The position numbers and the translations under genes were made by a program. The notes beneath the pieces are model-generated. The model saw only the letters and a program-made list of their open reading frames with translations. It ran no database searches and was not told the DNA's origin. Shown here piece after piece: positions 1-15,598 of a stretch of 64,000 nucleotides of DNA (positions are counted from its first letter, which is position 1; every line of letters starts with the position of its first letter). Origin of the DNA: Pseudogymnoascus verrucosus (taxonomy: Eukaryota); assembly GCA_001662655.1 (NCBI GenBank), contig KV460242.1. One strand, written 5' to 3'.

Positions 1-228
1 CCCCCTCTAACTTACTTATATTTGTCTAATTAGACGTTTAGCAGCAAGATCTATGTTTAGTTGGTATTGTCTCTTAGCAGTTAAGTAAAATCTATCGTTG
101 ATTTAAAGTTAAGACACTTTACGCATGGCTGATTTAACTCCTAATCTAACTGCTACGCTAAACCTAATATAATTGCACTTACTGCATTTAGACGCCTATT
201 TGAGTTAAATCGCCTTCCTCCTTATATA
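1..228 (-). mobile_element. Terminal ~228 bp of a putative DUF3505/TLH-type element, copy A (continues off the left edge)
   Basis: Gap-free match to 1510-1737 at offset 1509, with both transitions and transversions. It ends in CCTTATATA and abuts the truncated DUF3505/TLH ORF at 229. Confidence 0.6.
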
Positions 229-1445
229 GAGGGCTATTAAACCTATCTAACCCTTTTAAGCTCTATAAGATCATAGACATCATTAGCACGCTTATTTTCT
301 AGACCTAGGTTTCATTGTCTTCTCCTAACACTAATAATTAGAGCATATCCTCTAGTAGCTGCTTCTACTCTAGGTTAAATTTAGTTAGTTTATAGCAATC
401 CTTTATCCTATTACTCTATTTACTGTTAGTAGTTTCATGTGTCCTACCTCTTTCCCTAACTATGTCTAGAAGAAACTCTTCATTATTATCTACTAACTCT
501 TTATTACTCCTATTAACATTACATTTAAGAGCCTCCCTCTCCTTCTAAGCTATATATACTTGTAATAAATAGCAAGCAAATCGTTTTAAATAAGTAATGT
601 ATTAATCTAAACTATCCTCGTTCTATAGCTGTACTATAGGTTAGTTTTTAACCTTCTTAGTTAAGTTAGTAGTTTGCAACTAATATAGGTTGTCGTCATT
701 TAAGCTGCCTAACCCATCTATAGCGCCCTTAACTATAGAATTAACGATTTCTCTAGCGCGTTAGAGCTACTTATCCTTTTAGTTAGGCAACCTACTTATA
801 TAAGTAATACGTCTAATATTACAACTGCTAAAGTGTAGCTGCTACTATATAAAGTTCTACTAACTAGTATTATTGCTCTTCTTAGTCTTAGAATCTACAA
901 TCTTAAGCTGCCCCTTGTCCTACTTGTCTATTGCTATAAAATCCTATAATAATTAGTCTTAGAGTAATGCATCTTCGTTATCCTTAATATTAGAATTATT
1001 CTCCTGTTCCTTACTAGCTACAATAAAATATTTCTAGAATCTAGCCCTAAAGAATGTCTATACTGTTACCTCTTTCTAATGCACTAGATCCTCTTTTAAA
1101 TGAAACTACCTATGAATTTTACAGTGCCTTTAAATTGAGTTCTTTAATACTACAATCGTATTATAGTCGTTGTACTAGAACCCTATCATTAGTTCTCTAA
1201 GCGCTTTAAATGGTAGTCCACCTAATTTAGGAAGTGGAATATTTTTTAGGTTGCATAATATAAATTCCTTATACTTTTTAAGTAGTAGTCTTCGTCTTTC
1301 TATGCCTAGATTATAGACCTTATATAGATGATAATTAAAACCTTAGATAGCTGTATAATGTAGTTTATACAGCAAAACCCTATACTCTACATTATATTTA
1401 AATGTATCGTTATCTTAGACGTTGACGTTATTAACCCTACTATCC
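229..1445 (-). pseudogene. RIP-inactivated N-terminal ~400 codons of a DUF3505 (OrsD-like) / telomere-linked RecQ helicase-type protein
   Basis: De-RIPed minus-strand reading: YNVEYGVLLCKLHCTAI..HL..VH..GFQCNDC..KNSIRGHCKIHGW..WKEVTVQTFFG..YFIV, then TGWW..W..HF, SLDRYITYLKRFACYLLRV and DRFDSPL, where it is cut by copy A. Many TAG/TAA stops. Start position approximate. Confidence 0.75.
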
Positions 1446-1468
1446 TATTTAATGGTTGCTTATTAAGT

Positions 1469-1508
1469 AACCCTAAGTTAGTAGATATAACCCTAACCTC
1501 AACCCTAG
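1469..1508 (+). repeat. Degenerate telomere-like CCCTAA hexamers
   Basis: AACCCTAA at about 1469 and 1489, and AACCCTAG at 1501, lying between the element end and the DUF3505 ORF start. Confidence 0.45.
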
Positions 1509-1509
1509 A

Positions 1510-1737
1510 CCCCCTCTAACTTACTTATATTTAGCTAATTAGACGTTTAGCAGCAAGATCTATGTTTGATTAGCACTGTGTCTTAGTAGTAAAGCAAAAG
1601 CTGTCGTTAATTTAAAGTTATGTTACATTACACGTAGCTGTTTTAACTTCATTTTTAACTACTACGCTAAACCTAATCAAAATGCGCTTACTGCATTTAG
1701 ACGCATTTTTAAGTTAAATCATCGTCTGCCTTATGTA
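1510..1737 (-). mobile_element. Terminal ~228 bp of a putative DUF3505/TLH-type element, copy B
   Basis: Diverged direct repeat of 1-228. It ends in CCTTATGTA and directly abuts mid-gene NACHT coding sequence at 1738. Confidence 0.6.
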
Positions 1738-3250
1738 AAGGACGCATCTTAGAACACAGCTGTTGCAATCATCCATGGCCTACTATATCAACTTATCAGC
1801 TAATACCCCTAACTTTTACATCATGTATTTACTCTATAGAAAATACAACAGGATGCTTTATTTAATAGCAACTCCTTTGAATGCCTTTAGAGGATATTCT
1901 AGACAATGCTAGAGGACCTTAGGACGGATTTAATCTACATCCTTAACGGACTAGATAAATGCGCTAATGATTCTCTTACAGGTCTACTTTAGAAGATCAA
2001 GATTCTCTTTATAGAGAGCCTAGAGAGGCATAAACTAAGACTTATCATTCTTAGTTAGAGACACCCTAACTTCCTCGAGAGGATGCTAGGTTCATTCGTT
2101 TGGATCGACCTAGATTCTAATTAAGTTAACAATCGACCTGATACTAATGCTTATATCACCTCTTGGGTTGCGCAGCTTGCTAAGCGAAAAGGGATTTCTA
2201 CGAGCCTTGTTAAGCATATCGAAGAGATATTTTAGAAGAAATTAGAAGATACATTCCTCTAGGTTAGTTTCATAGCTAATGACCTTAAGAAGCAGACAGT
2301 ATCCGGCATCGAGAAGGCATTGCACACCCTCCTAAGGGGCCTCGATGAGATTTATGAGCGAATATTGCTAGGTATAAAGCTAGATGACACTGCCATCATC
2401 GCAACTATGCTATAATGGATTTCACTAGCTATGAGTCCATTAACAGTGCCCTAGCTAGCTGAAGCCATGCGAGTTCAAGCATCTAGTTATCTGTTAAAAG
2501 AAGAGCTCTACATGATCTATATTGAATCTTGCGGTTACTTACTTCAGGTTTCTTGCCTAAGCGATCCTGATGAGTCGTCCTAAGATTCGGAAGTCTCACT
2601 CAGTCCTAGCGTAACCTTTGTCCACTAAAGCGTTAAAGACTTCATTTTCAAGCTACCTAAGCACCACATGGTCTTGGCTTTTCAGGTGAATAAGGCATAG
2701 GGTGATCTTAACATCGCCTGTCAATTGCTATCTTCTATGTAGAACGAATGGCTTGAATGTGTTAAAGACATACATGAATCTATATTTCCTGAGGGTATGT
2801 TCCGAGAGATCGATGCATACCCCCTAGCACAATACGCACGACTGAATTGGGACCTTCACTTGAAACAGCTACAAGATAAGAGCCTTTTGCACTTAATCGA
2901 TAGGAACGCGTTTTTTTTCTTAGATTCGTCTACTGTTAGAGACAAGTGGCAGTATGCGAGCGGTACCCTAATCTCTTACAGAGAAAAAGCAAATTTGCTT
3001 CAATTTGCTTGCGAATTTGGACTTCTCGCTTTGGCGAAGAAGTTCCTGAAACGAAAGAGACTAACCTCGCCATTCACGTTCTAGCAATATATCAACCACG
3101 AGGGCTCCAGCTAGTCGGCGCTATGTCTTGCAATTGATAGCGGAAATATTGAGCTAATCCAGCTTCTTTTAAGCTACAAGGTGAATATACTATGGAAAAC
3201 CTATAATAAAAGTGGTGCTCTGCATTCAGCGTTAAGAAAACGGCGATCTT
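1738..3250 (+). pseudogene. 5'-truncated, RIP-damaged NACHT NTPase-ankyrin (fungal NLR-like) gene
   Basis: De-RIPed: KDASRNTAVAIIRGLLYQL; IYILDGLDEC (Walker B); TFLWVSF; LPKGLDEIYERILL; LQWISLAMSPLTVPQLAEA; VTFVHQSVKDF; YPLAQYARLNWDLHL; ankyrin-like LLQFACEFGL. Walker A is absent and there are many stops. Confidence 0.85.
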
Positions 3251-3313
3251 AACTCAAGCAACCTTCAAAGCATTCAAGAACCCGAGCCCGACAGTCTGGC
3301 AGGCTGTGAGAGT

Positions 3314-3463
3314 GAGACGTACGGCAACCGGATACACTGTTACTTAGTGGTTTCCCTAGCTAGGCGGCCACCCCATGCATATAGATTAACGAAGGAGCTT
3401 CTGGAGGCGCTACGTGATGCTGTCAAAGGTCACAAGTCGTTTCTTGAGGATGGGAAGATTCTT
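3314..3463 (+). pseudogene. Fragment of a fungal-type protein kinase (FunK1 family)
   Basis: ETYGNRIHCYLVVS..RP.HAYR.TKELLEALRDAVKGHKSFLEDGKIL, breaking just before the expected HRD motif. Confidence 0.7.
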
Positions 3464-3523
3464 CGTTTTTCCCTAGTCACTAATCTATGTTCTCTAGATA
3501 CAATTGCTGATGCGGAGCAGGCT

Positions 3524-3750
3524 CTAATTGGGCCCTGGCCGCTGGACCGAAGGCTCAAGATATTGAGGCTGTATCAACGCAAGTAGATGTGCGATAGTGT
3601 TGAGGCTTTCACGCTAGCTCCCCTGACCCGTATCTTGAAATGGAGCTACGAAGAAACCTAAGTCCTAATAGCAAAGATTAGGAGTGATTTGCGCAACAAA
3701 AAGAACCATTTGCATATTGCTTTTCACTTTGTATATAGGCGGAACCTGTT
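3524..3750 (+). pseudogene. C-terminal fragment of a LaeA/TAM-like SAM-dependent methyltransferase
   Basis: LIGPWPLDRRLK..(*)MCDSVEAFTLAPLTRILKWSYEET(*)VLIAKIRSDLRNKKNHLHIAFHFVY.RN; internal stops and no N-terminus. Confidence 0.75.
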
Positions 3751-5457
3751 AGCACATCCTTCAGAGATATATTACAGAGTATAAAGTCTGTATTTAATTA
3801 TAATAGCTGTGAACATATAGATTTAGGTAGGCTTTAATTTCATAGAAAAGCTGCTGTAGTGCCAAGAAGGCAGGATAACGCAATCTATGTACGCTGTTTA
3901 GCGCCAACTGATTAAGGTTCGCGGCCCCTTACTAAGCTGCACATGTATCCACTAATCCACCTAATAGTGCCACCTACACCAGCGAATCATCCCTCACCCC
4001 ATAGTACCACCGATGGTGTCGATGAACCCTCACTACCCTATTGTCTCACCTGATGGTCTCAATAAACGCTTACCACTACGTATGCACCCACGGAGCAATC
4101 CCTTAGAGGGCATTTAGCCGTATAGGCTCATTTAACTGTCCCGCCAATGTCGTCCAACACTAAGGGCTGTTGCGCTAGTGAGGCGGTAAGTAGTGTTTAT
4201 GTGTCTAAGCAGTCCAATGTAAGGGCGAATAAGACGTTAAGTGGCAGGGAAAACTTGAACCATACAATCATACTCCGACTGTATCATTAGTGTGAGAGTG
4301 AACCTAGTAGGGCACTGTCAGTTGACCCTAGACGACTGACCCTAGATCTTAACCTAGCTGGCCACTGTCTATTGATCGATTTTATGTTTGGCTCAGCTAG
4401 CTTTAAGACAGTTTCATTAAATAATTCGTCAGTCATCGACAGCTCAACGAGCAGATAGAAAGCAGCTGGAACTCCTACAGTCTAACAGGCTAAGCAAAGT
4501 TTGTGTCAATTTTGTGTCACTCACGCATCATACAGGAATAAGTCAAGTTAAGTTCATTGTAAGCATATTAAAGTAAGCGCATTTAATTACCTAAGGCTAT
4601 AATATTCGGCAGATCAAAGGCTATCACCCATCACTGATAATGAAACACCAATCCCTTTATCGTACCGTGTCTCAATAAACCTTCAGCCACATCAGACGAA
4701 AACGACCCACAACTGTTTCACCTGTCAAAAAAGCTTACCACTCCCATCAGCCCGAAATGTTAGAATTTCGCCCCTAAAATACCTCAGCTACAGCTTCTGT
4801 CTCGGGGGACAAGATCAGGGTCTAGTTAGTCATACTTAATTTGTCACTCAGCAAAAACGGCGGGGTGCGGGTCTTAGTACAGCTCAGGGTACGACAGCTA
4901 CGGTCCTGTTACAGCTGTCACAAGCTCGATGTCTTACCCATGGTAAAGGGATTAGGGGTGTCTTAGGAGCTCAGCTTCAATATTAACGCCAGATCATCAC
5001 GGGATTTCCTTACAATAACTCAAGAGTGTAGATCACGGCTAGATACGCAGCACTGGCTTTGTCACGAACAGGGCCTCGGCCTCTTAAGACGCCCATCCAA
5101 GGTCTAGGAATATAATACATAGGCTTGTTTAGGTGTTGTCATTCACTAATATTGGCAGATCGGTACATGGCTCTGTCTAATTACTACATATTCGGATAGA
5201 TATTGCCTCAAGCCGCCCCTGCTCAGTAAATATCATGTCTTAGAGATGCCGATAGTAGAAAAGAAATCCAAAAAAGGTAGACGGCTAGCTTGCTCTTGAT
5301 CATAGCATTTCAGAGGTTATATAAGGTTGTTTGAACGCCCCCCGCCAGACCACACTTAGTACGGTTACGCAGCAGCAGTTACGCAGCAGTAGTCATCACA
5401 CAACAGAAAAACATCCTATTACTTCTCGCCTTTTTTATCACTCTTACCACCGCTACA

Positions 5458-5686: not shown

Positions 5687-5957
5687 CCTTCAAAGTGAAC
5701 CAAACCACATTCTGCCTCTGCAACTGTCGCTATTGTCAGGTCACGTAGAGGGGCTTGACTTGAGCAAAACAAAGGTTTAGCTCTCATGACAGACGTCAAA
5801 GTCCAGGCCATTGCTATTAAGAGCTATTAAGAGTAATGGCCTAGACTTTAACATCCGTCATTAGGGAGCTAAACCTTAGTTCTGCTCGAGCCCTTCTAGG
5901 TGACCTAACAAGAGCGAGAATTGTAGAGGCAGAATGTGCTTTGGTTCACTTTGAAGG
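5687..5957. repeat. 271-bp imperfect palindrome (foldback/MITE-like)
   Basis: CCTTCAAAGTGAACCAAACCACATTCTGCCTCT at 5687 pairs with AGAGGCAGAATGTGCTTTGGTTCACTTTGAAGG ending at 5957; pairing continues inward to a centre near 5822. Confidence 0.85.
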
Positions 5958-6678: not shown

Positions 6679-7060
6679 TCATCCTGCTATCGGACTTCTT
6701 CGGCTCCTTATAAGTGTTCCGTGCCGAATGAGTCCGGCATGTGTAGAAGTGACTACTCCCTGCTTCACCACCAATCTCGCCAGCTCCGTCTTAGCTTGAC
6801 CTATCTCTGATGCAGGTGTCTTCTTGCTGCTCTTTCCATTCTGACACTTCCCTTCTTCATGAGAACGGCCAAGCTCCCGTTTCCGATTTGGAGATAAAAT
6901 TCCCAGTAACGCTCTTAGACGAACGAACTCGGCTCGTTCAAAGTCAATCCAGGTAATCCCTGGTCGATCCGGGTGGATGAGAATGTTCCGGGCTGCAGGA
7001 TCACCCTGCAATACTCCCAGCTGATGTATGGCATGGCAGATGGCGTCGTCAGCGAGTCCT
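6679..7060 (-). pseudogene. C-terminal fragment of a protein-kinase-like protein
   Basis: AIHQLGVLQGDPAARNILI..ITWIDFERA (degenerate HxD..N and DFx motifs); the N-lobe is missing. Confidence 0.6.
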
Positions 7061-8650
7061 CGGAAAGTTGGCCGGTTACGTGCCTTAGGCAACCGGTCCT
7101 GAAACCTCTCTTTATCTTGTCTCACTTCTCGTGGCAGAATGAGGCGTCTCATCAGCTCCGTCATCACTTTATATCTTCGGTATTGCCTTCGATATTGTCT
7201 TTGATAAGTTAATCATGTGGTGGGAATGGGATAGTCAACTGACAGAATGATATGTTCGTGTTGTACGAAATCGCCAAAGACAGTGGCCTTTGCGAGTAAA
7301 AGCAGCAGAGCAGCAGACAAATGGTGGTGCCACGACAATCAAAACATGTTTTAATCAACGTCATGTCTCAGTCCCTTTCCAGCAACGAGCCCTTTACCGG
7401 CTAGATTGAATTCATTCGTTAAACTGTTGATTAGATAGGTCGCAGAGAATCTAGAGCCAATATTTACGTATTTTGTGTCTTAAAAGGTGCTGTTACACCG
7501 GTTTATCGATCCAACGCCCACAAGAATGGCTAACGGGCTGTTTCACGCTATATCAATCTCCCGAAGTCTGTTGGCTTTAATTGTACTCACATAACAGAAA
7601 AGTAGGACGAAAATGTATATGCCTGCATGCAATCGCCAGAAAGATAAATGCATCATGGCTACCATGGCTTGCTGGTCGGCGCGGCTGGAACGCGAATTAC
7701 TTCATGATTGGTATTACAACGGCTAAATTGTCTAATTAACGATATTTCAACTTATACAACAGGACAAACTGCCAACTCTCTGTTTACTTGTCTAGGCAGC
7801 TGTGTTTTATGGCGCTAGGTGCTCTCTTTGGACCATCTTGCAGTTGTGCCTTATGTATCTCCTACTCTTTTTAACCCTTAGTGGCAACAGTCTCGCGGAT
7901 CGTCCACGTCACGCTGTATCTAGGCCGAGACATCAACCCTGTGAAGGGATACAACAGATATCTACTGCATCAACTGTAACATGAAGCTCAGAAAGGATAA
8001 GAACGGCACTTTCGCCGGCCTCTGCCTCTCTCCTGATATTTATAACTTGCACAATACAGAAGGCAACCCTCTTTCTGAGAGTTGATCACTAGGTTACACA
8101 AAGATCCTAGTACAAAACACAGTGACTAGACACAGGGACTAGAAAAGTGGACGCTTGCCCCGATCTCGGTAGTTTCTTAATCTCGCTCAAAGACTGTGTG
8201 ACACTAGCTTCCCATGCATATTGATGGGTTTGCACAAGTGAGCTACAGAAAATATATGCCTAAGATGTGTGGCATACAGCATGTCGAAATACTACCATAT
8301 GAATGGTAGTTAGTAACAGTATGGCGTTCGGCCATTATAGAGCGAAGGGGGAAGAGTGGATGGTGGCGGGTAGACCTGAAGAGCTTAATTATCACCGATC
8401 AATGTAAACCCTGTGCGTTCTCCACGGAGACCAGGAGGTCTATCCCCAGTTTTCAGCAACTGCCTGTGTACAGATCGGCAGTCGCGTACATTGCTGGCAC
8501 ACCCCTACAAATTCTAAGACTGGCGTACCACACCACGTACATATTGTTGTCGATTTACTCACTGTGCAGGTATCGATGTTAATTGGACAACATATAAGTG
8601 ACGACTAAAAGAAGAAGTTTCAGATCCAGCTTCATTTCGCCACCGCTCTT

Positions 8651-8790
8651 GTTGTATTACGTTCAGCTTGTCTNNNNNNNNNNNNNNNNNNNNNNNNNNN
8701 NNNNNNNNNNNNNNNNNNNNNNNNNNNNNNNNNNNNNNNNNNNNNNNNNNNNNNNNNNNNNNNNNNNAGACAAGCTGAACGTAATACAAC
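8651..8790. other. Assembly gap (94 N, 8674-8767) flanked by perfect 23-bp inverted repeats
   Basis: GTTGTATTACGTTCAGCTTGTCT-[N]-AGACAAGCTGAACGTAATACAAC. Confidence 0.9.
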
Positions 8791-11040: not shown

Positions 11041-13182
11041 TCACGTCTGCGTCCAGAACCTCCACCTTGTCGACAACCGACCCCCCGACAAATGAATCTC
11101 AGTGTTAAATCGATTCCCACGTTCCCACATTTCAATTCTTTTACGCTGTTACTCTTCTCAAAATACTGACTATGTCATGTATTGTAGGTCGAAAATTATC
11201 TAGAGTCTTACTCGACTTTAAGCATCAATCTACCTCATATTGTTCAACTAGATACAGATATACTCCTAGATAGGAAACCCCATGCCTACTGTCATGCGTC
11301 ATATCTGTGGGTCCTACTTTATTATTTTTTTGGTATCGCGGTGCTGTAAAAATGGTAAATCACGCCCCCTAATGTTAGATAAACAGGGCTTACCACGCCT
11401 GCATGCATGCTTTCGTCGTGGGATACGCAAACACGAGACCCTAGGAATGGGATGCAACGTCGAACCTCTAGGAGTCCTAGAGGTTGAAGAATGCGGTTCT
11501 AGAGTTAGAGTTGCAAGTTAGAGTTGCAGGTTGAAGCACTGGATTTCGACGATCTCGCCTCGCTTATTTAACTAATGACATACAGCGTTCGTTCGAATGT
11601 ATAACCTAGTTACGCATTTAAGAATAGCGTATATAAGTTAAATGCACTCTACTTAGTCTTTATAGCTTATAAAAGTTTAGTTGTAAATGGAAAGGTAAAC
11701 TAAGGCTTTAGTAAACAAGATTAGATAATTATGTTATTTTATCTTCCCTATCTTATAGAGAGTTAAGAGGAACATCTAATTAGCACATTATAAAAGGGTA
11801 GGAGCTAAGGGCATAGGGAGCCTTATATAGCCTAGATATTATAGTAGGTTTCTACAACCCCTATACTAACATATTAATAAATGGAGTAATCTAGGTTATA
11901 GTGTTTTAAACGTAGATTATAGGGATATAGGCTTACTTAAGAACGCTCTTAAGAGAAGTCTCTTAGAAGGATTCTCCTAGAAGTAATAGGCTCCTAGAAG
12001 AGTTCTCTTAGAAGAGTTAGTCTACTAGAAGAACTCTCCTAGAAGAGAATTTACATAATTAGATATATTAGATATATAGATAACGTATTTCACATACGAG
12101 TGGCGCACACAAACGAGTAGCGCACTAAAACACCAAAAACGCGTTAACTTACTTACATAAACAATGGCACTACTAACTCAACCTAAGTCCTCTAATTAAG
12201 AGGGTAGGATACTTCTAGCTATTTAATCAATTAAAGAAGGCCATATTCAAAGTGTTCGAGCTGCTGTAATGTTGTACGATGTCCCTAAAACAACACTTAG
12301 ACGACGCGCCCGTAGTGGTATTTCTCGACGCAACTCTACCCCTAACTTACAAAAATTGACTCTGTACGAAGAGTCAGCTCTTGTTTAGTATATCCTTAAC
12401 CTAGATTCGCGTGGATTTCTGCCCTAGCTACAAGATGTGTAAGAAATGGCTAACCTTCTACTCTCTAAACGAGGCAAGGGCCCTGTTAGGAAGAACTAGA
12501 CTATAAACTTTATAAAGCGCTATATGGAAATTAAAGCAAAGTTCAGTTAGAAGTACGATTATAAACGAGTAAAATGTGAAGATCTAAAGATAATTAAAGG
12601 GTGGTTCTCCCTTATACGAAACACAGTTGTAAAATATAGAATTCTAGAGTAGGATATCTATAACTTTAATGAAGTAGGTTTCGCAATAGGAGTTATTGCT
12701 ACTATAAAGGTAGTTACAAGCTTAGAAGCAAAGAGCTGTCTAAAGACTATATAGCTAGGGAATAGAGAGTAGGTGTTAATTATCTAAGGTGTTAATTTGT
12801 ATAGATGGGCACTCCTGCTGTTCATTATTTTCAAGGCGTAGAATCACCTCTCTACATAGTATAAGGACTTAGGATTGCTAGACAATTAGGTAATTACACT
12901 AAGTAAGAATAGGTGGACCTTAAATTTAATTAGGTACGAGTAGATTTAACACTTCGATTAACATACAAATGCTTGTACAATTAGAACCTATCGCCTTCTT
13001 ATTCTTAACGGACATAAGAGCCACCTCTCTACTCAATTTCAACACTACTGTATAGAACGGAAGATAATCACCCTCTATATGCTACTACACTCCTTGTACA
13101 TTCTTTAACTACTTAACGTTAGCTGCTTTGCTCTACTAAAGCTTTCATACAGACGTTAGATTAAAACCTTCATACAGAATAG

Positions 13183-13662
13183 TGTTACAGCTAGGGTTTT
13201 TAGCGACACTATCGCCGATACCCTAAGTATAGTAGCAATGCACATGTTAGCGATTTAGCCGCTCTTAAAGCAGGGTTAGTTATCAGGCACCTAATGAGCG
13301 TCTAGTACCTAGGTTTACAGGTACTAGAAGACAGTTAGGCACCTAGGAATTAGGAGGTACTAGAGTTGCAGGTACTAGAAGCAGCACAGGTACTAGAATA
13401 GCACTTACGTAATAGAACTATAAGAACTGCTAGAACTCTTACAGTTCCTATAGTTCCTCACAGTCCCCTTTAGCACGACGCTACTATATAAGTAGATAGA
13501 TAGTTCTTAGATAGGAGCTTCGTGCTCAACTCAATATAGTATTTGTTATATACTATAACGTGTTTTACAAAAGCCTTTGTGTCTGATCCCCTGCCTCCTC
13601 TATTAAGTAAACTAACGTAATGAAACCTTTATAAGTCTTATAGTTTAAGACCTAGCGTTACA
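13183..13662 (+). repeat. 5' LTR
   Basis: TGTTACA...CGTTACA; TATATAAG near 13486; internal GGTACTAGA repeats. Confidence 0.95.
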
Positions 13663-13708: not shown

Positions 13709-15598
13709 ATAGCTAGAAACAATTCCACCTCTAACGTAGGGACGAAAGGGAAGGCGGCTATAGAGCCTGTCCCTTCGCCTACTACTACGCCTACGCCTAG
13801 AGGGCCTCACCCCTTAGACAAACTTAAGATTGCATTCCTAGACACCTTTAACGGGGACTGTAAGAAGCTTAAGAGCTTCCTCATCTAGATAGAGTTGTAG
13901 ATAGCCTTTAACGCTAAACACTTCGCCTTTAAAGTGCAATAGGTCTTGTAGGCTGTAGCCCTCTTAAGGGGTGCTGCCTTAGACTAGATTACTAACTACC
14001 TAACCAACTACATAAGCCACTATGCAGCTAACGGAAGGGTCACTACGACAGCCAATTAGGGAACTAAGGATATCTTCATTACTTAGGTAGGTTTTGTTAA
14101 ACAGCTTAAGGCGAACTTTAGAGATGTTAATGAGAGAAGGAACGTAGTGCAAGCCATTTAGGCCCTTAGACAGAAAGGGTCTACAGTCATGTATACTGCT
14201 AAGTTTTAGTAGCATGCCCCTCTTACCCATTAGGGAGACAAGGCTATATATAACTAATATTATAAGGGGTTAAAGGATTATGTAAAGGATAAGATTTCTC
14301 GATCTAACAAACCAGATGACCTTAAGGAACTCATTAAGATGGTATAAAAAATCGACAATCGTTGCTACAAACGCCAACTTGAAAGACGAGGAGGAACATC
14401 TAGCTACTAATAGACCTAAAAGAGGAGAACTTAGAAGAGTCATTAGCCTTAGCCCATAGAGCTTAACGCTATGTTTAAGCCTAGTAGGAGACCCTACAAC
14501 CTAAACAAGGAGTAACAGCTTAAGGAACAGTTGTGCTTTAATTGCAACAAGCTAGGCTATATAGCCTAAGACTACAAGCAACCTAAGAAAGGGAACGGAG
14601 GACATAAGAAGTTTAGGAGACAACTTAACGCTACCTAGAAGGGACAGCTAAACGCCACGTTTGTAAACAAACCTAATTAGGGAATTAACGGCGTTAGCAC
14701 CCTAGAAGGGCAGAGCTTAGACAACAAAGATCTCGACGATTTCAACGCATTACTTAAAAAGGAGAATGAACTCCTAAACAAGGAACTAACGGAATCCTAG
14801 AAACTCTAGTTAAAGGAGTTTAAAGAAGACGCAAAGGAGATTGCATTTAAGGAGAATCTACTAGGAGTAGTTAACGTCTATAGACAGGCTATGCTCTAAA
14901 AGGGAACTCCCTAAGCAATTCCTATACCACCACCCCTAATAGGATAGATAGGTACTTAGTAAGACTAGGAAGTTGCAGTTCGCGCCATAAGGTGTCGCCC
15001 TAGGTACCTATAAGGAAGGGAGCCCTAAGGAGTAAACCACACCTCTAAGGAAGCTACTATGTAGTTGAAATACAAGCTTGCAGAATATAACGCGCAAGAT
15101 GAACAGTAGGAAGACACTTAGGGCCTAGAACCCTAGGAACTACAAGTAGACTAAGCTGCTATAGACTACGAACCTACTAATAGAGATGTAGAAAGGTTAC
15201 GTGTAACTATAGAGAAATCCAAGCTTATAGGCAAGACAAAGGAGGAACAGGAATTAACAAAGTTAGATGCATTAAGGATTGATCACCCCTAGCACCTATA
15301 CATATTCTAGGAACACTATAAGTACAATGACTATAAGAGTCACCTATGGAAAAAGACCTAGTATCGACTATTTCTGAAAATTGCACCGTAGGTCTACTTT
15401 ACAGATATAAACCAAATTCATGCCCTTAGACAAAGTCAGTCTAAAGGAGAACTACCGTTAAAGAAACAACAATAGGTATACGAGAAATACCTACACCTAC
15501 TAGATGAAGCAGAAGGATAGGGAGGACAATCTTCCTAAGGACTGCCTATAGAGGATAATGAACATTACTATTACTCCTTAGACGAGTTAAAAAACTAG
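13709..15598 (+). pseudogene. Retrotransposon gag (RIP-damaged) with CCHC knuckle, ending at an AAAAAAC-TAG slippery site
   Basis: De-RIPed: PDTFDGD..KLKSF, LRQKGS, YYKGLKD.VKD and CFNCNKPGHMARDC (about 14534-14575). Start codon inferred. Confidence 0.8.

Follow-up and report, generated by a model that had tools for sequence, protein, structure and literature searches.

The first 1,741 nucleotides (nt) of a 64,000-nt stretch of Pseudogymnoascus verrucosus contig KV460242.1 (hereafter the window, whose positions are used as coordinates throughout) very probably show the defined 5′ end of telomere-linked helicase (TLH) elements arranged in a head-to-tail stack. TLH genes are found at the chromosome ends of many fungi; to our knowledge, both their function and their spread to nearly every end have been open questions since the 1990s. 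The object in the window is a dead member of this known subtelomeric unit. We think it somewhat probable that the stack records a history of terminal addition, in which repeated wearing-back of the chromosome end was followed, in every round, by attachment of a TLH element through its defined 5′ terminus. Full-length relatives carry a middle domain predicted to fold as a tyrosine recombinase, and TLH genes may therefore attach themselves to worn chromosome tips.

A repeated terminal segment between two broken genes

The window begins with one copy of a direct repeat, at 1–232, that recurs at 1510–1741; the two copies align without gaps at 81.9% identity (blastn, E 4e-57). Over these 232 nt they are separated by 24 transitions and 18 transversions, and are thus diverged members of one family. 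A strong signature of repeat-induced point mutation (RIP) is present in both copies and in the open reading frame (ORF) between them: the TpA/ApT ratio is 1.6–1.8 in 1–1743 and 0.74 in 24–64 kb, and the (CpA+TpG)/(ApC+GpT) index is 0.54–0.75 in 1–1743 compared to 1.2 in the gene-rich 24–64 kb.

All parts of the stack lie on the minus strand. Copy A (1–232) is a 5′ terminal segment of a TLH element whose end falls at 231/232 and which leaves the window leftward. Next, at 233–1453, comes a RIP-killed relic of about 400 codons, the 5′ part of copy B's TLH ORF, identified by its X-read translation, phmmer and tblastn, and cut at about position 234, where the terminus of copy A begins. The terminal segment of copy B itself (1510–1741) ends at 1740/1741 and abuts the relic of a NACHT (NPHP3_N type)-ankyrin gene of the NOD-like receptor (NLR) class, a 5′-truncated pseudogene with RIP-type stops at 1742–3300 on the plus strand, which reads away from the junction. 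The Pfam matches in this relic are to NPHP3_N (E 1.4e-07, covering profile positions 61–163 of 164 only) and Ank_2 (E 1.4e-04). TAA or TAG accounts for 20 of the 524 codons in the NACHT-ankyrin relic and for 35 of the 421 codons in the minus-strand ORF relic between the repeats.

We estimate that the ORF of copy B began near position 1450, about 290 nt inside the element end, where no ATG survives. A cluster of four telomere-like heptamers, TAGGGTT on the ORF strand (1433–1507, minus strand), occupies the interval from the terminal segment to the conserved ORF sequence. Read on the other strand as AACCCTA, this heptamer occurs ten times in the 64 kb, with four of the occurrences inside these 80 nt, and none of 500 first-order Markov simulations of 1–24 kb produced more than two in 80 nt. 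Telomere repeats were looked for at the window junctions and none were found; a second element end, an inverted repeat of the element or a target duplication is likewise not visible in the window.

Copies of the element end in the likely source strain

Two public sequencing runs were compared with the window. The first, X1, contained 95% of the sampled words of window positions 1–4000 and likely derives from the source strain; the second, X2, contained 15%. Contigs from both were aligned to window positions 1–5000. Two X1 contigs run unbroken from the equivalent of 1288–1509 into the equivalent of 1–232 (contig 1) or 1–231 (contig 2). Because these two copies run straight through, the left limit of the repeat (1 and 1510) reflects only where the window begins. 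Past the terminus, at 231 in contig 2 and 232 in contig 1, the X1 DNA is unlike the window, and the two contigs are unlike each other. The copies therefore stop at the same base beside unrelated DNA, and the end of the TLH element is discrete.

Another contig from the same run, contig 5, carries the last 88 nt of the terminal segment (the equivalent of 1654–1741), then 5 nt, and then TLH sequence from ORF position 1099 onward. This is a second junction of a terminus with a 3′-truncated TLH copy, placed head-to-tail like copies A and B of the window. Both window copies and three X1 contigs thus stop at the same end (231/232 or 1741), beside neighbours that differ. When four flanks were aligned on the terminus, only bases owned by the element were in common; the terminus reads CCTC or CCTT, and the preceding base is C, G, T or A in the four copies. 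In one other X1 contig the ORF of copy B goes on beyond position 234, so longer copies of the ORF exist. Where X1 and the window differ, the window mostly has T or A and the other copies have C or G (among the listed counts, 139 T>C and 116 A>G), a direction that fits the window copies being the RIP-mutated ones.

Run X2 comes from a related organism and holds an ORF copy about 85% identical over 234–1513, on a 7.4-kb contig that extends both ways. At 80% likeness or more, X2 gave no cover on 1–233 or on most of 1514–1767, from which we draw no conclusion.

An earlier reading of the window, made from its sequence alone, had described a 228-bp repeat at 1–228 and 1510–1737, had taken the copies for diverged family members sharing a terminus that cuts two different genes, and had proposed a GYCCTY target preference beside that terminus. 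The repeat is real and gap-free, although its shared part ends at 231/232 and its left limit is that of the window. The divergence of the copies is confirmed by the substitutions between them, to which strong RIP mutation in both has to be added. A common terminus that cuts different genes is also borne out, given that the end recurs beside unrelated DNA in X1, that the NACHT gene is truncated at its 5′ side and that ORF homology stops at the junction. The target preference does not survive: because the shared sequence reaches 231/232, three to four of the six GYCCTY bases belong to the element, and the four true flanks have no motif in common. The same reading had placed an inward-pointing ORF about 300 bp inside the end, for which our estimate is about 290 nt.

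The broken ORF belongs to the telomere-linked helicases

The X-read translation of the ORF relic (P0001, 421 codons) was used as a phmmer query against 1.84 billion representative proteins and returned 128 matches, 43 of them at E ≤1e-10 and seven at E ≤1e-30. It aligns with the first ~420 residues of proteins that are 1174–1784 aa long. Pfam searches on 15 of these homologues placed OrsD (DUF3505) at the N-terminus in 12, and DEAD and/or Helicase_C some 700–1300 residues in for seven; the models matched on the helicase side, here and in the 83 further relatives described below, were DEAD, Helicase_C, ResIII and RecQ zinc-binding only. This layout of OrsD and helicase is the published TLH architecture, and the assignment of the ORF to the DUF3505 or TLH type in the sequence-only reading was therefore correct.

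The X-read window ORF itself had no Pfam match, OrsD included; despite its RIP damage it aligns, from residue ~30, to the OrsD region of its homologues. A tblastn search of the window with 13 homologues recovered a single TLH fragment, which runs from 1405 down to 227 and stops at the junction near 235, and found no helicase part elsewhere in the window, the right side included. From the zinc-finger region the relic extends across the linker into the first helices of the recombinase-like domain described below. The window copy is cut at about codon 400, ahead of the recombinase-like and helicase domains that full-length homologues carry, and is thus a truncated relic of a TLH gene.

Orientation and boundaries of TLH loci in metagenomes

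We collected 80 TLH loci with their flanks from a scan of metagenome contigs and oriented all of them with the ORF on the plus strand. In ten of the 80, the contig ends downstream of the ORF in (TTAGGG)n, while a telomere array upstream of the ORF or in the other orientation was found in none. The junction with the telomere repeats varies between TLH families, which looks like variable truncation. More than one TLH copy or fragment is present at 20 of the 80 loci, all on the same strand with the exception of one small internal inverted piece (L059, L060). The inner copies at such multi-copy loci are often cut on their 3′ side, and the inner ORF of L007 and of L076/L018 remains open until the exact base at which the next element starts. 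Pfam searches on four open frames that abut junctions in these relatives returned nothing.

A 16-mer, CCTAACCAATATGAGG, recurs in many of the loci. When up to three changes are allowed, 24 loci yield 29 matches. Each of these is on the ORF strand, mostly 230–410 nt upstream of the estimated ORF start, or about 2.4–2.6 kb upstream in one family; three matches inside ORFs are probably due to chance. In six loci with long flanks, similarity starts exactly at the 16-mer and the DNA ahead of it is unrelated. L021 and L022 are 99.5% identical from the 16-mer base onward and have different flanks. Many loci also carry one to three sense TTAGGG units, mostly 130–275 nt upstream of the start, resembling the heptamer cluster of the window.

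Two other candidate features of these loci were rejected. The boundaries first drawn among them by blastn at ≥75–80% identity proved to be a 42-nt insertion in one case and divergence inside the ORF in the other, and an internal site near residue 1130 that appeared to be shared by three loci resolved into truncations at different places in the helicase.

Several further observations concern individual loci. Just inside the telomere junction, within the last ~100 nt, L006, L019, L024, L032 and L064, which represent several TLH families, carry TAACCGCT or close variants of it. In L055, positions 1350–1660, between two complete tandem TLH units, hold about five copies of a ~40-nt repeat containing GGGTTAACCC, which resembles head-to-head telomere half-repeats and is followed by two variant terminal 16-mers. 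In one TLH lineage (L002, L006, L012, L015, L044 and L077) the protein alignment has a break of about 250–360 nt at residue ~942–946 of the reference protein, which probably reflects a conserved position for an intron or small insertion. In L015, an AT-rich, RIP-like copy of the terminus and leader lies at 6880–7185, directly upstream of the TLH terminus; in this stack, about 300 nt are all that is left of the inner copy.

A recombinase-like middle domain in intact homologues

Tyrosine recombinases share a catalytic set that runs, in order, Arg, Lys, His-x-x-Arg, His/Trp and Tyr. In an alignment of the long TLH homologues, the region between the zinc fingers and the helicase contains four conserved segments, GGQPARGxEI, YHK...PK.IPRFLP, DYRH.A..IGR and AG(R/H)......YGV, in that order, and these resemble the Arg I, hairpin Lys, Arg II-His and His/Tyr segments of tyrosine recombinases. 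The motif set GQPxRG, YRH and YG[VT] occurs in order in all nine of the long homologues checked. A second search with the middle domain as query yielded 83 proteins, whose source names are hypothetical protein or RecQ-type helicase only; the precomputed Pfam lists of these 83 relatives contain no model on the middle-domain stretch, and DUF3435 has no match in these lists or in any homologue that we scanned.

Numbered after homologue P0159 and counted over 66 aligned sequences, the candidate catalytic positions are nearly invariant: R338 is kept in 65, E341 in 65, K372 in 66, R457 in 64, H458 in 64 and Y509 in 65, and position 500 holds R in 53 sequences and H in ten. The equivalence of these residues with catalytic ones was assigned by motif order and secondary structure. 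On this basis the middle domain likely has a conserved putative active site.

The AlphaFold model of a 552-aa member has a mean pLDDT of 82.9. When it was compared with 48,161 representative chains using VIA-align, ranks 1–16 were all tyrosine recombinases or type IB topoisomerases, with Z-scores from 11.3 to 6.7; unrelated helical proteins appear from rank 17 (Z 6.6), mixed with further members of the superfamily. The best match is an archaeal Xer recombinase (Z 11.3, root-mean-square deviation 3.4, 170 residues aligned), and Cre, at Z 10.1 with 236 residues aligned, is covered in both its core-binding and catalytic domains. Of the top 14 Foldseek rows, 13 are Cre, Xer or lambda-type recombinases, and VIA-align on these rows gave Z-scores up to 11.3. 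A tyrosine-recombinase fold for the TLH middle domain is thus well supported by the predicted structure. Our literature search, which did not include the 2009 paper that defined the TLH domain, found no paper linking telomere-linked helicases with a tyrosine-recombinase fold.

The sequence-only reading had raised the prospect of a recombinase fold beside a RecQ domain in intact members of the family, and both a RecQ-like helicase and, on the modelled structure, a tyrosine-recombinase fold are present there. It had also stated that no mobilising enzyme is visible in the window. This is accurate in that the domain is cut away here; the possible enzyme, however, is the product of the element's own ORF, because intact members encode the recombinase fold.

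Proposed terminal addition and its alternatives

Terminal addition fits the data better than nested insertion at a preferred site. Following the layout of its relatives, an intact element would have a sharp 5′ terminus on the centromere side, then a leader of about 290 nt with telomere-like heptamers, then a single large ORF encoding OrsD/DUF3505 zinc fingers, a tyrosine-recombinase-like domain and a RecQ-like helicase, and finally a 3′ region passing into the telomere, so that the ORF would point toward the chromosome end. To judge from the same relatives, the end would have worn back or broken twice, first into the NACHT gene and later into the TLH copy B, and each time a new TLH element would have joined the raw end by its 5′ terminus, bringing a new telomere-side segment with it. 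What the NACHT gene and ORF B now lack would have been lost, not displaced. In the window, copy B sits on a NACHT gene without its 5′ half and was itself cut after about 400 codons where the terminus of copy A begins. The traits of such a stack recur in the relatives, namely a single orientation, an inner copy cut on the side facing the telomere, an exact outer 5′ terminus on the break and a neighbouring gene cut in the same way, as expected from repeated wearing-back followed by fresh attachment of a 5′ end.

We can also entertain, more tentatively and as less likely than not, an autonomous DNA element that heals chromosome ends and has TLH as its only gene, whose zinc-finger, tyrosine-recombinase and RecQ-helicase protein would cut at the conserved 5′ terminus and join it to a bare or eroded end. 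Tyrosine recombinases form a 3′-phosphotyrosyl link that can be resolved by a 5′-OH end. Speculatively, the recombinase-like domain would nick the bottom strand at the terminus, the element-side 3′ phosphate would be joined to the 5′-OH of the bare end, and the helicase would help to copy the remainder; such nicking and joining would place an exact element boundary next to any sequence. A recombinase-like domain in the element's own protein makes that protein the obvious candidate for the joining enzyme.

The topology proposed in the sequence-only reading was different, and in a broader form it would have a cut-and-paste or circle-integrating element of the Starship or Crypton kind insert twice at preferred internal sites, B into the NACHT gene and A into B, with the displaced halves lying beyond the far ends. 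A discrete end beside unrelated DNA, an ORF that starts about 290 nt inside this end and points inward, and intact relatives with a predicted tyrosine-recombinase fold and conserved Arg, Lys, Arg-His and Tyr are all compatible with this account. Both window junctions are moreover CCT-N-AGG-like, and tyrosine recombinases need only short core identities. Yet the four flanks from the same genome have no common motif beyond the bases of the element, and neither a second end of the element nor an inverted repeat or target duplication can be seen. Nested insertion predicts mixed orientations, whereas adjacent copies have one orientation in 20 of 20 multi-copy loci, and the distal side consists of telomere repeats in all ten loci that reach the contig end. 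It also predicts displaced remainders, of which none were found in L016, L022 and L027 over the 0.7–3.1 kb checked. The relatives' head-to-tail stacks, with inner copies cut at the 3′ side and a telomere on the distal side, therefore speak against nesting, and we regard it as unlikely.

We also doubt that the stack arose through passive subtelomere dynamics. On that account the TLH protein has no role: a TLH block was copied between chromosome ends by ectopic recombination, break-induced replication or unequal crossing-over, and its boundary was inherited as a junction or is a recombination hot spot. Subtelomeric blocks with helicase genes do spread between chromosome ends in yeasts and filamentous fungi, tandem Y′ arrays being an example (summarised in PMC1635262), and the Fusarium oxysporum (10.1101/2024.02.27.582403) and "host-specific subtelomere" preprints explain TLH blocks by recombination; telomere-like heptamers inside the leader would suit such an origin. 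Homology-driven copying, however, leaves unexplained why one exact boundary lies beside at least four unrelated flanks in a single genome, and why truncated ORFs are joined to it at different positions (235 and 1099 here, others in L007 and L076). The boundary 16-mer is kept across lineages whose proteins are only 40–68% identical, which argues for a functional site, and the same ORF has conserved what looks, from the model, like a catalytic recombinase domain.

An assembly artefact, with the contig end extended into a repeat and the first 235 bases wrongly joined to 236 onward, is a further alternative that we consider very improbable. The exactly matching X1 contig 3 begins at 236, the X1 depth over 1–167 is fully explained by two diverged copies with no exact contig over 1–235, and a run of 94 N at 8674–8767 identifies the window record as a scaffolded draft. 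A hole in contig cover by itself proves nothing, however, and copy A, which has a base unlike that of either other copy at no fewer than five shared positions, is therefore not their consensus. Like junctions occur in X1 contig 5 and in several metagenome loci, and the junction of copy B with the NACHT gene lies inside the exactly matching X1 contig 3.

Several results weigh against terminal addition, or against the enzymatic role proposed with it. With no X1 contig exact over 1–235, the junction between copies A and B is seen solely in the assembly. The window shows no telomere repeats, and the placement at a chromosome end is drawn from relatives. The 232-nt segment of the window has no significant similarity to the 5′ regions of these relatives (nhmmer, E >1), and its first bases, CCTC or CCTT, resemble the 16-mer loosely, at nine of 16 positions without a gap. 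Duplicates among the metagenome loci (L047/L048, L018/L076 and L020–L022) mean that the counts given for them overstate independence, and the search downstream of the distal copies that found no cut-off 3′ remainders covered only the 0.7–3.1 kb noted above. Concerning the middle domain, the first His of the classical HxxR is poorly kept (H in 18 and L in 32 of the 66 sequences), and the AlphaFold model is poor around the putative Tyr, over residues 478–514. Foldseek gave no match at E ≤0.001, its best being E 0.04; an integrase-type Pfam family was absent both at E ≤0.001 in 15 proteins and at E ≤10 in 21 proteins; and a profile search against PDB sequences found no recombinase, its matches being an acidic low-complexity one and weak zinc-finger rows only. 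Finally, TLHcr units of F. oxysporum are reported to have telomere repeats on both sides (10.1101/2024.02.27.582403), in contrast to the window junctions, which have none.

Comparison with known systems

Terminal addition of TLH elements would have a work-alike in the telomere retrotransposons, HeT-A and TART of Drosophila and MoTeR and FoTeR of fungi, which build head-to-tail stacks at chromosome ends by repeated addition and leave truncated inner copies. Telomere-specific retrotransposons attach by their 3′ end and are truncated on the 5′ side. In TLH elements it is the 5′ end that is joined and the 3′ side that is cut, and no reverse transcriptase is present.

Y′ elements are alike in forming head-to-tail helicase units at chromosome ends. 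Y′ copies amplify when telomeres fail, have telomere-repeat tracts between them and spread by homologous recombination. In Saccharomyces cerevisiae they are helicase-encoding, subtelomeric and tandem, as summarised in PMC1635262.

Starships, with their DUF3435 captain, and Cryptons share with TLH elements a protein of recombinase fold encoded near one end and pointing inward, an exact end beside varied DNA, and the lack of long terminal inverted repeats at the visible end. TLH proteins differ in matching neither DUF3435 nor an integrase model and in having the domain fused to zinc fingers and a RecQ-like helicase; their copies are oriented toward the telomere and arranged head-to-tail, and the far end in relatives is a variable telomere junction, not a defined terminus. 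The resemblance to Starships noted in the sequence-only reading thus holds for the layout, with an ORF near the end that points inward, but does not extend to membership, as no homologue scanned has DUF3435.

Helitrons encode a Rep (HUH) nuclease with a Pif1-type helicase, have 5′-TC and 3′-CTRR ends and are inserted between A and T. We considered a Helitron origin for the TLH element and rejected it: the helicase is RecQ-like, no Rep domain was found, and the terminus is CCTC or CCTT after C, G, T or A. The label "Helitron-like" has been given to TLH/DUF3505 repeats in Botrytis cinerea Vv3 (10.1101/2022.03.07.483234) and, as ToxB-HLE, in Pyrenophora tritici-repentis (10.1101/2025.11.13.688278). 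In the passages of these reports that concern them, the repeats are similar to those studied here in bearing a helicase or DUF3505, in lying at chromosome ends or in tandem duplications, and in being without inverted repeats.

TLH loci have been described in Magnaporthe oryzae (Rehmeyer et al. 2006, PMC1635262). There, the 3′ end of TLH lies toward the telomere, a repeat array with telomere-like motifs stops 181 bp before the TLH start codon, seven ends become chromosome-unique at the unit CCTAACCAGTAATA, from its first or second C, and one TLH ORF is shortened by chromosome truncation. Region I of the M. oryzae TLH locus is therefore like the stack described here in its telomere-like motifs just upstream of the start, its discrete boundary on the centromere side, where the unit begins CCTAACC, and its truncated ORFs. 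The two differ in that the window has a unique 232-nt leader segment where M. oryzae has a tandem HAR-CDEF array, and in that the window holds a two-copy stack joined without telomere repeats, all of it RIP-dead. The passages of that paper considered here propose no enzymatic role for the non-helicase part of the protein and no origin for the boundary.

For F. oxysporum (10.1101/2024.02.27.582403), TLHcr are described as units of 6–13 kb at most chromosome ends, single or arrayed and full or truncated. The encoded protein combines C2H2 and RecQ motifs with a "TLH domain", which is treated as a conserved motif without an assigned fold or function. Defined TLH boundaries and arrays with truncated copies have thus already been published for Magnaporthe and Fusarium, and the recombinase fold and the base-exact anatomy of the junctions are what is new here. 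The description of TLH as passive subtelomeric genes in the sequence-only reading, although a fair one, left out this published proximal boundary and these truncated arrays.

Other features of the window

The stack lies at the left edge of an AT-rich block that occupies 1–24 kb of the window. A Pfam scan of 12–15 kb within this block showed two further RIP-degraded relics, one of a pogo/Fot1-type DNA transposon at 12200–13200 (DDE_1, E 6e-09, and HTH_psq in Pfam) and one of a Ty3-type retrotransposon gag at 13800–14600 (Ty3_capsid, E 7e-06 in Pfam). An inverted repeat at 5687–5957 has 72-nt arms that are 88% complementary and separated by 127 nt, together with an inner 25-nt pair.

Significance

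The window provides the anatomy of TLH junctions at base level: one exact end meets two broken sequences, an NLR gene at one junction and an older copy of the element at the other. Together, the recombinase fold predicted for the middle domain, the terminal 16-mer found across lineages and the stacks that point toward the telomere turn the notion of a "dynamic subtelomere" into a concrete and testable mechanism. If the TLH protein does join its own element to raw chromosome ends, mobile elements of a new kind would be capping chromosomes independently of telomerase. They would be a DNA-based counterpart of the telomere retrotransposons of Drosophila and a class of their own among tyrosine-recombinase elements. 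It might then be necessary to revisit several of the "Helitron-like" labels published for TLH repeats, and such a mechanism would explain how genes at the chromosome ends of fungi are lost and replaced.

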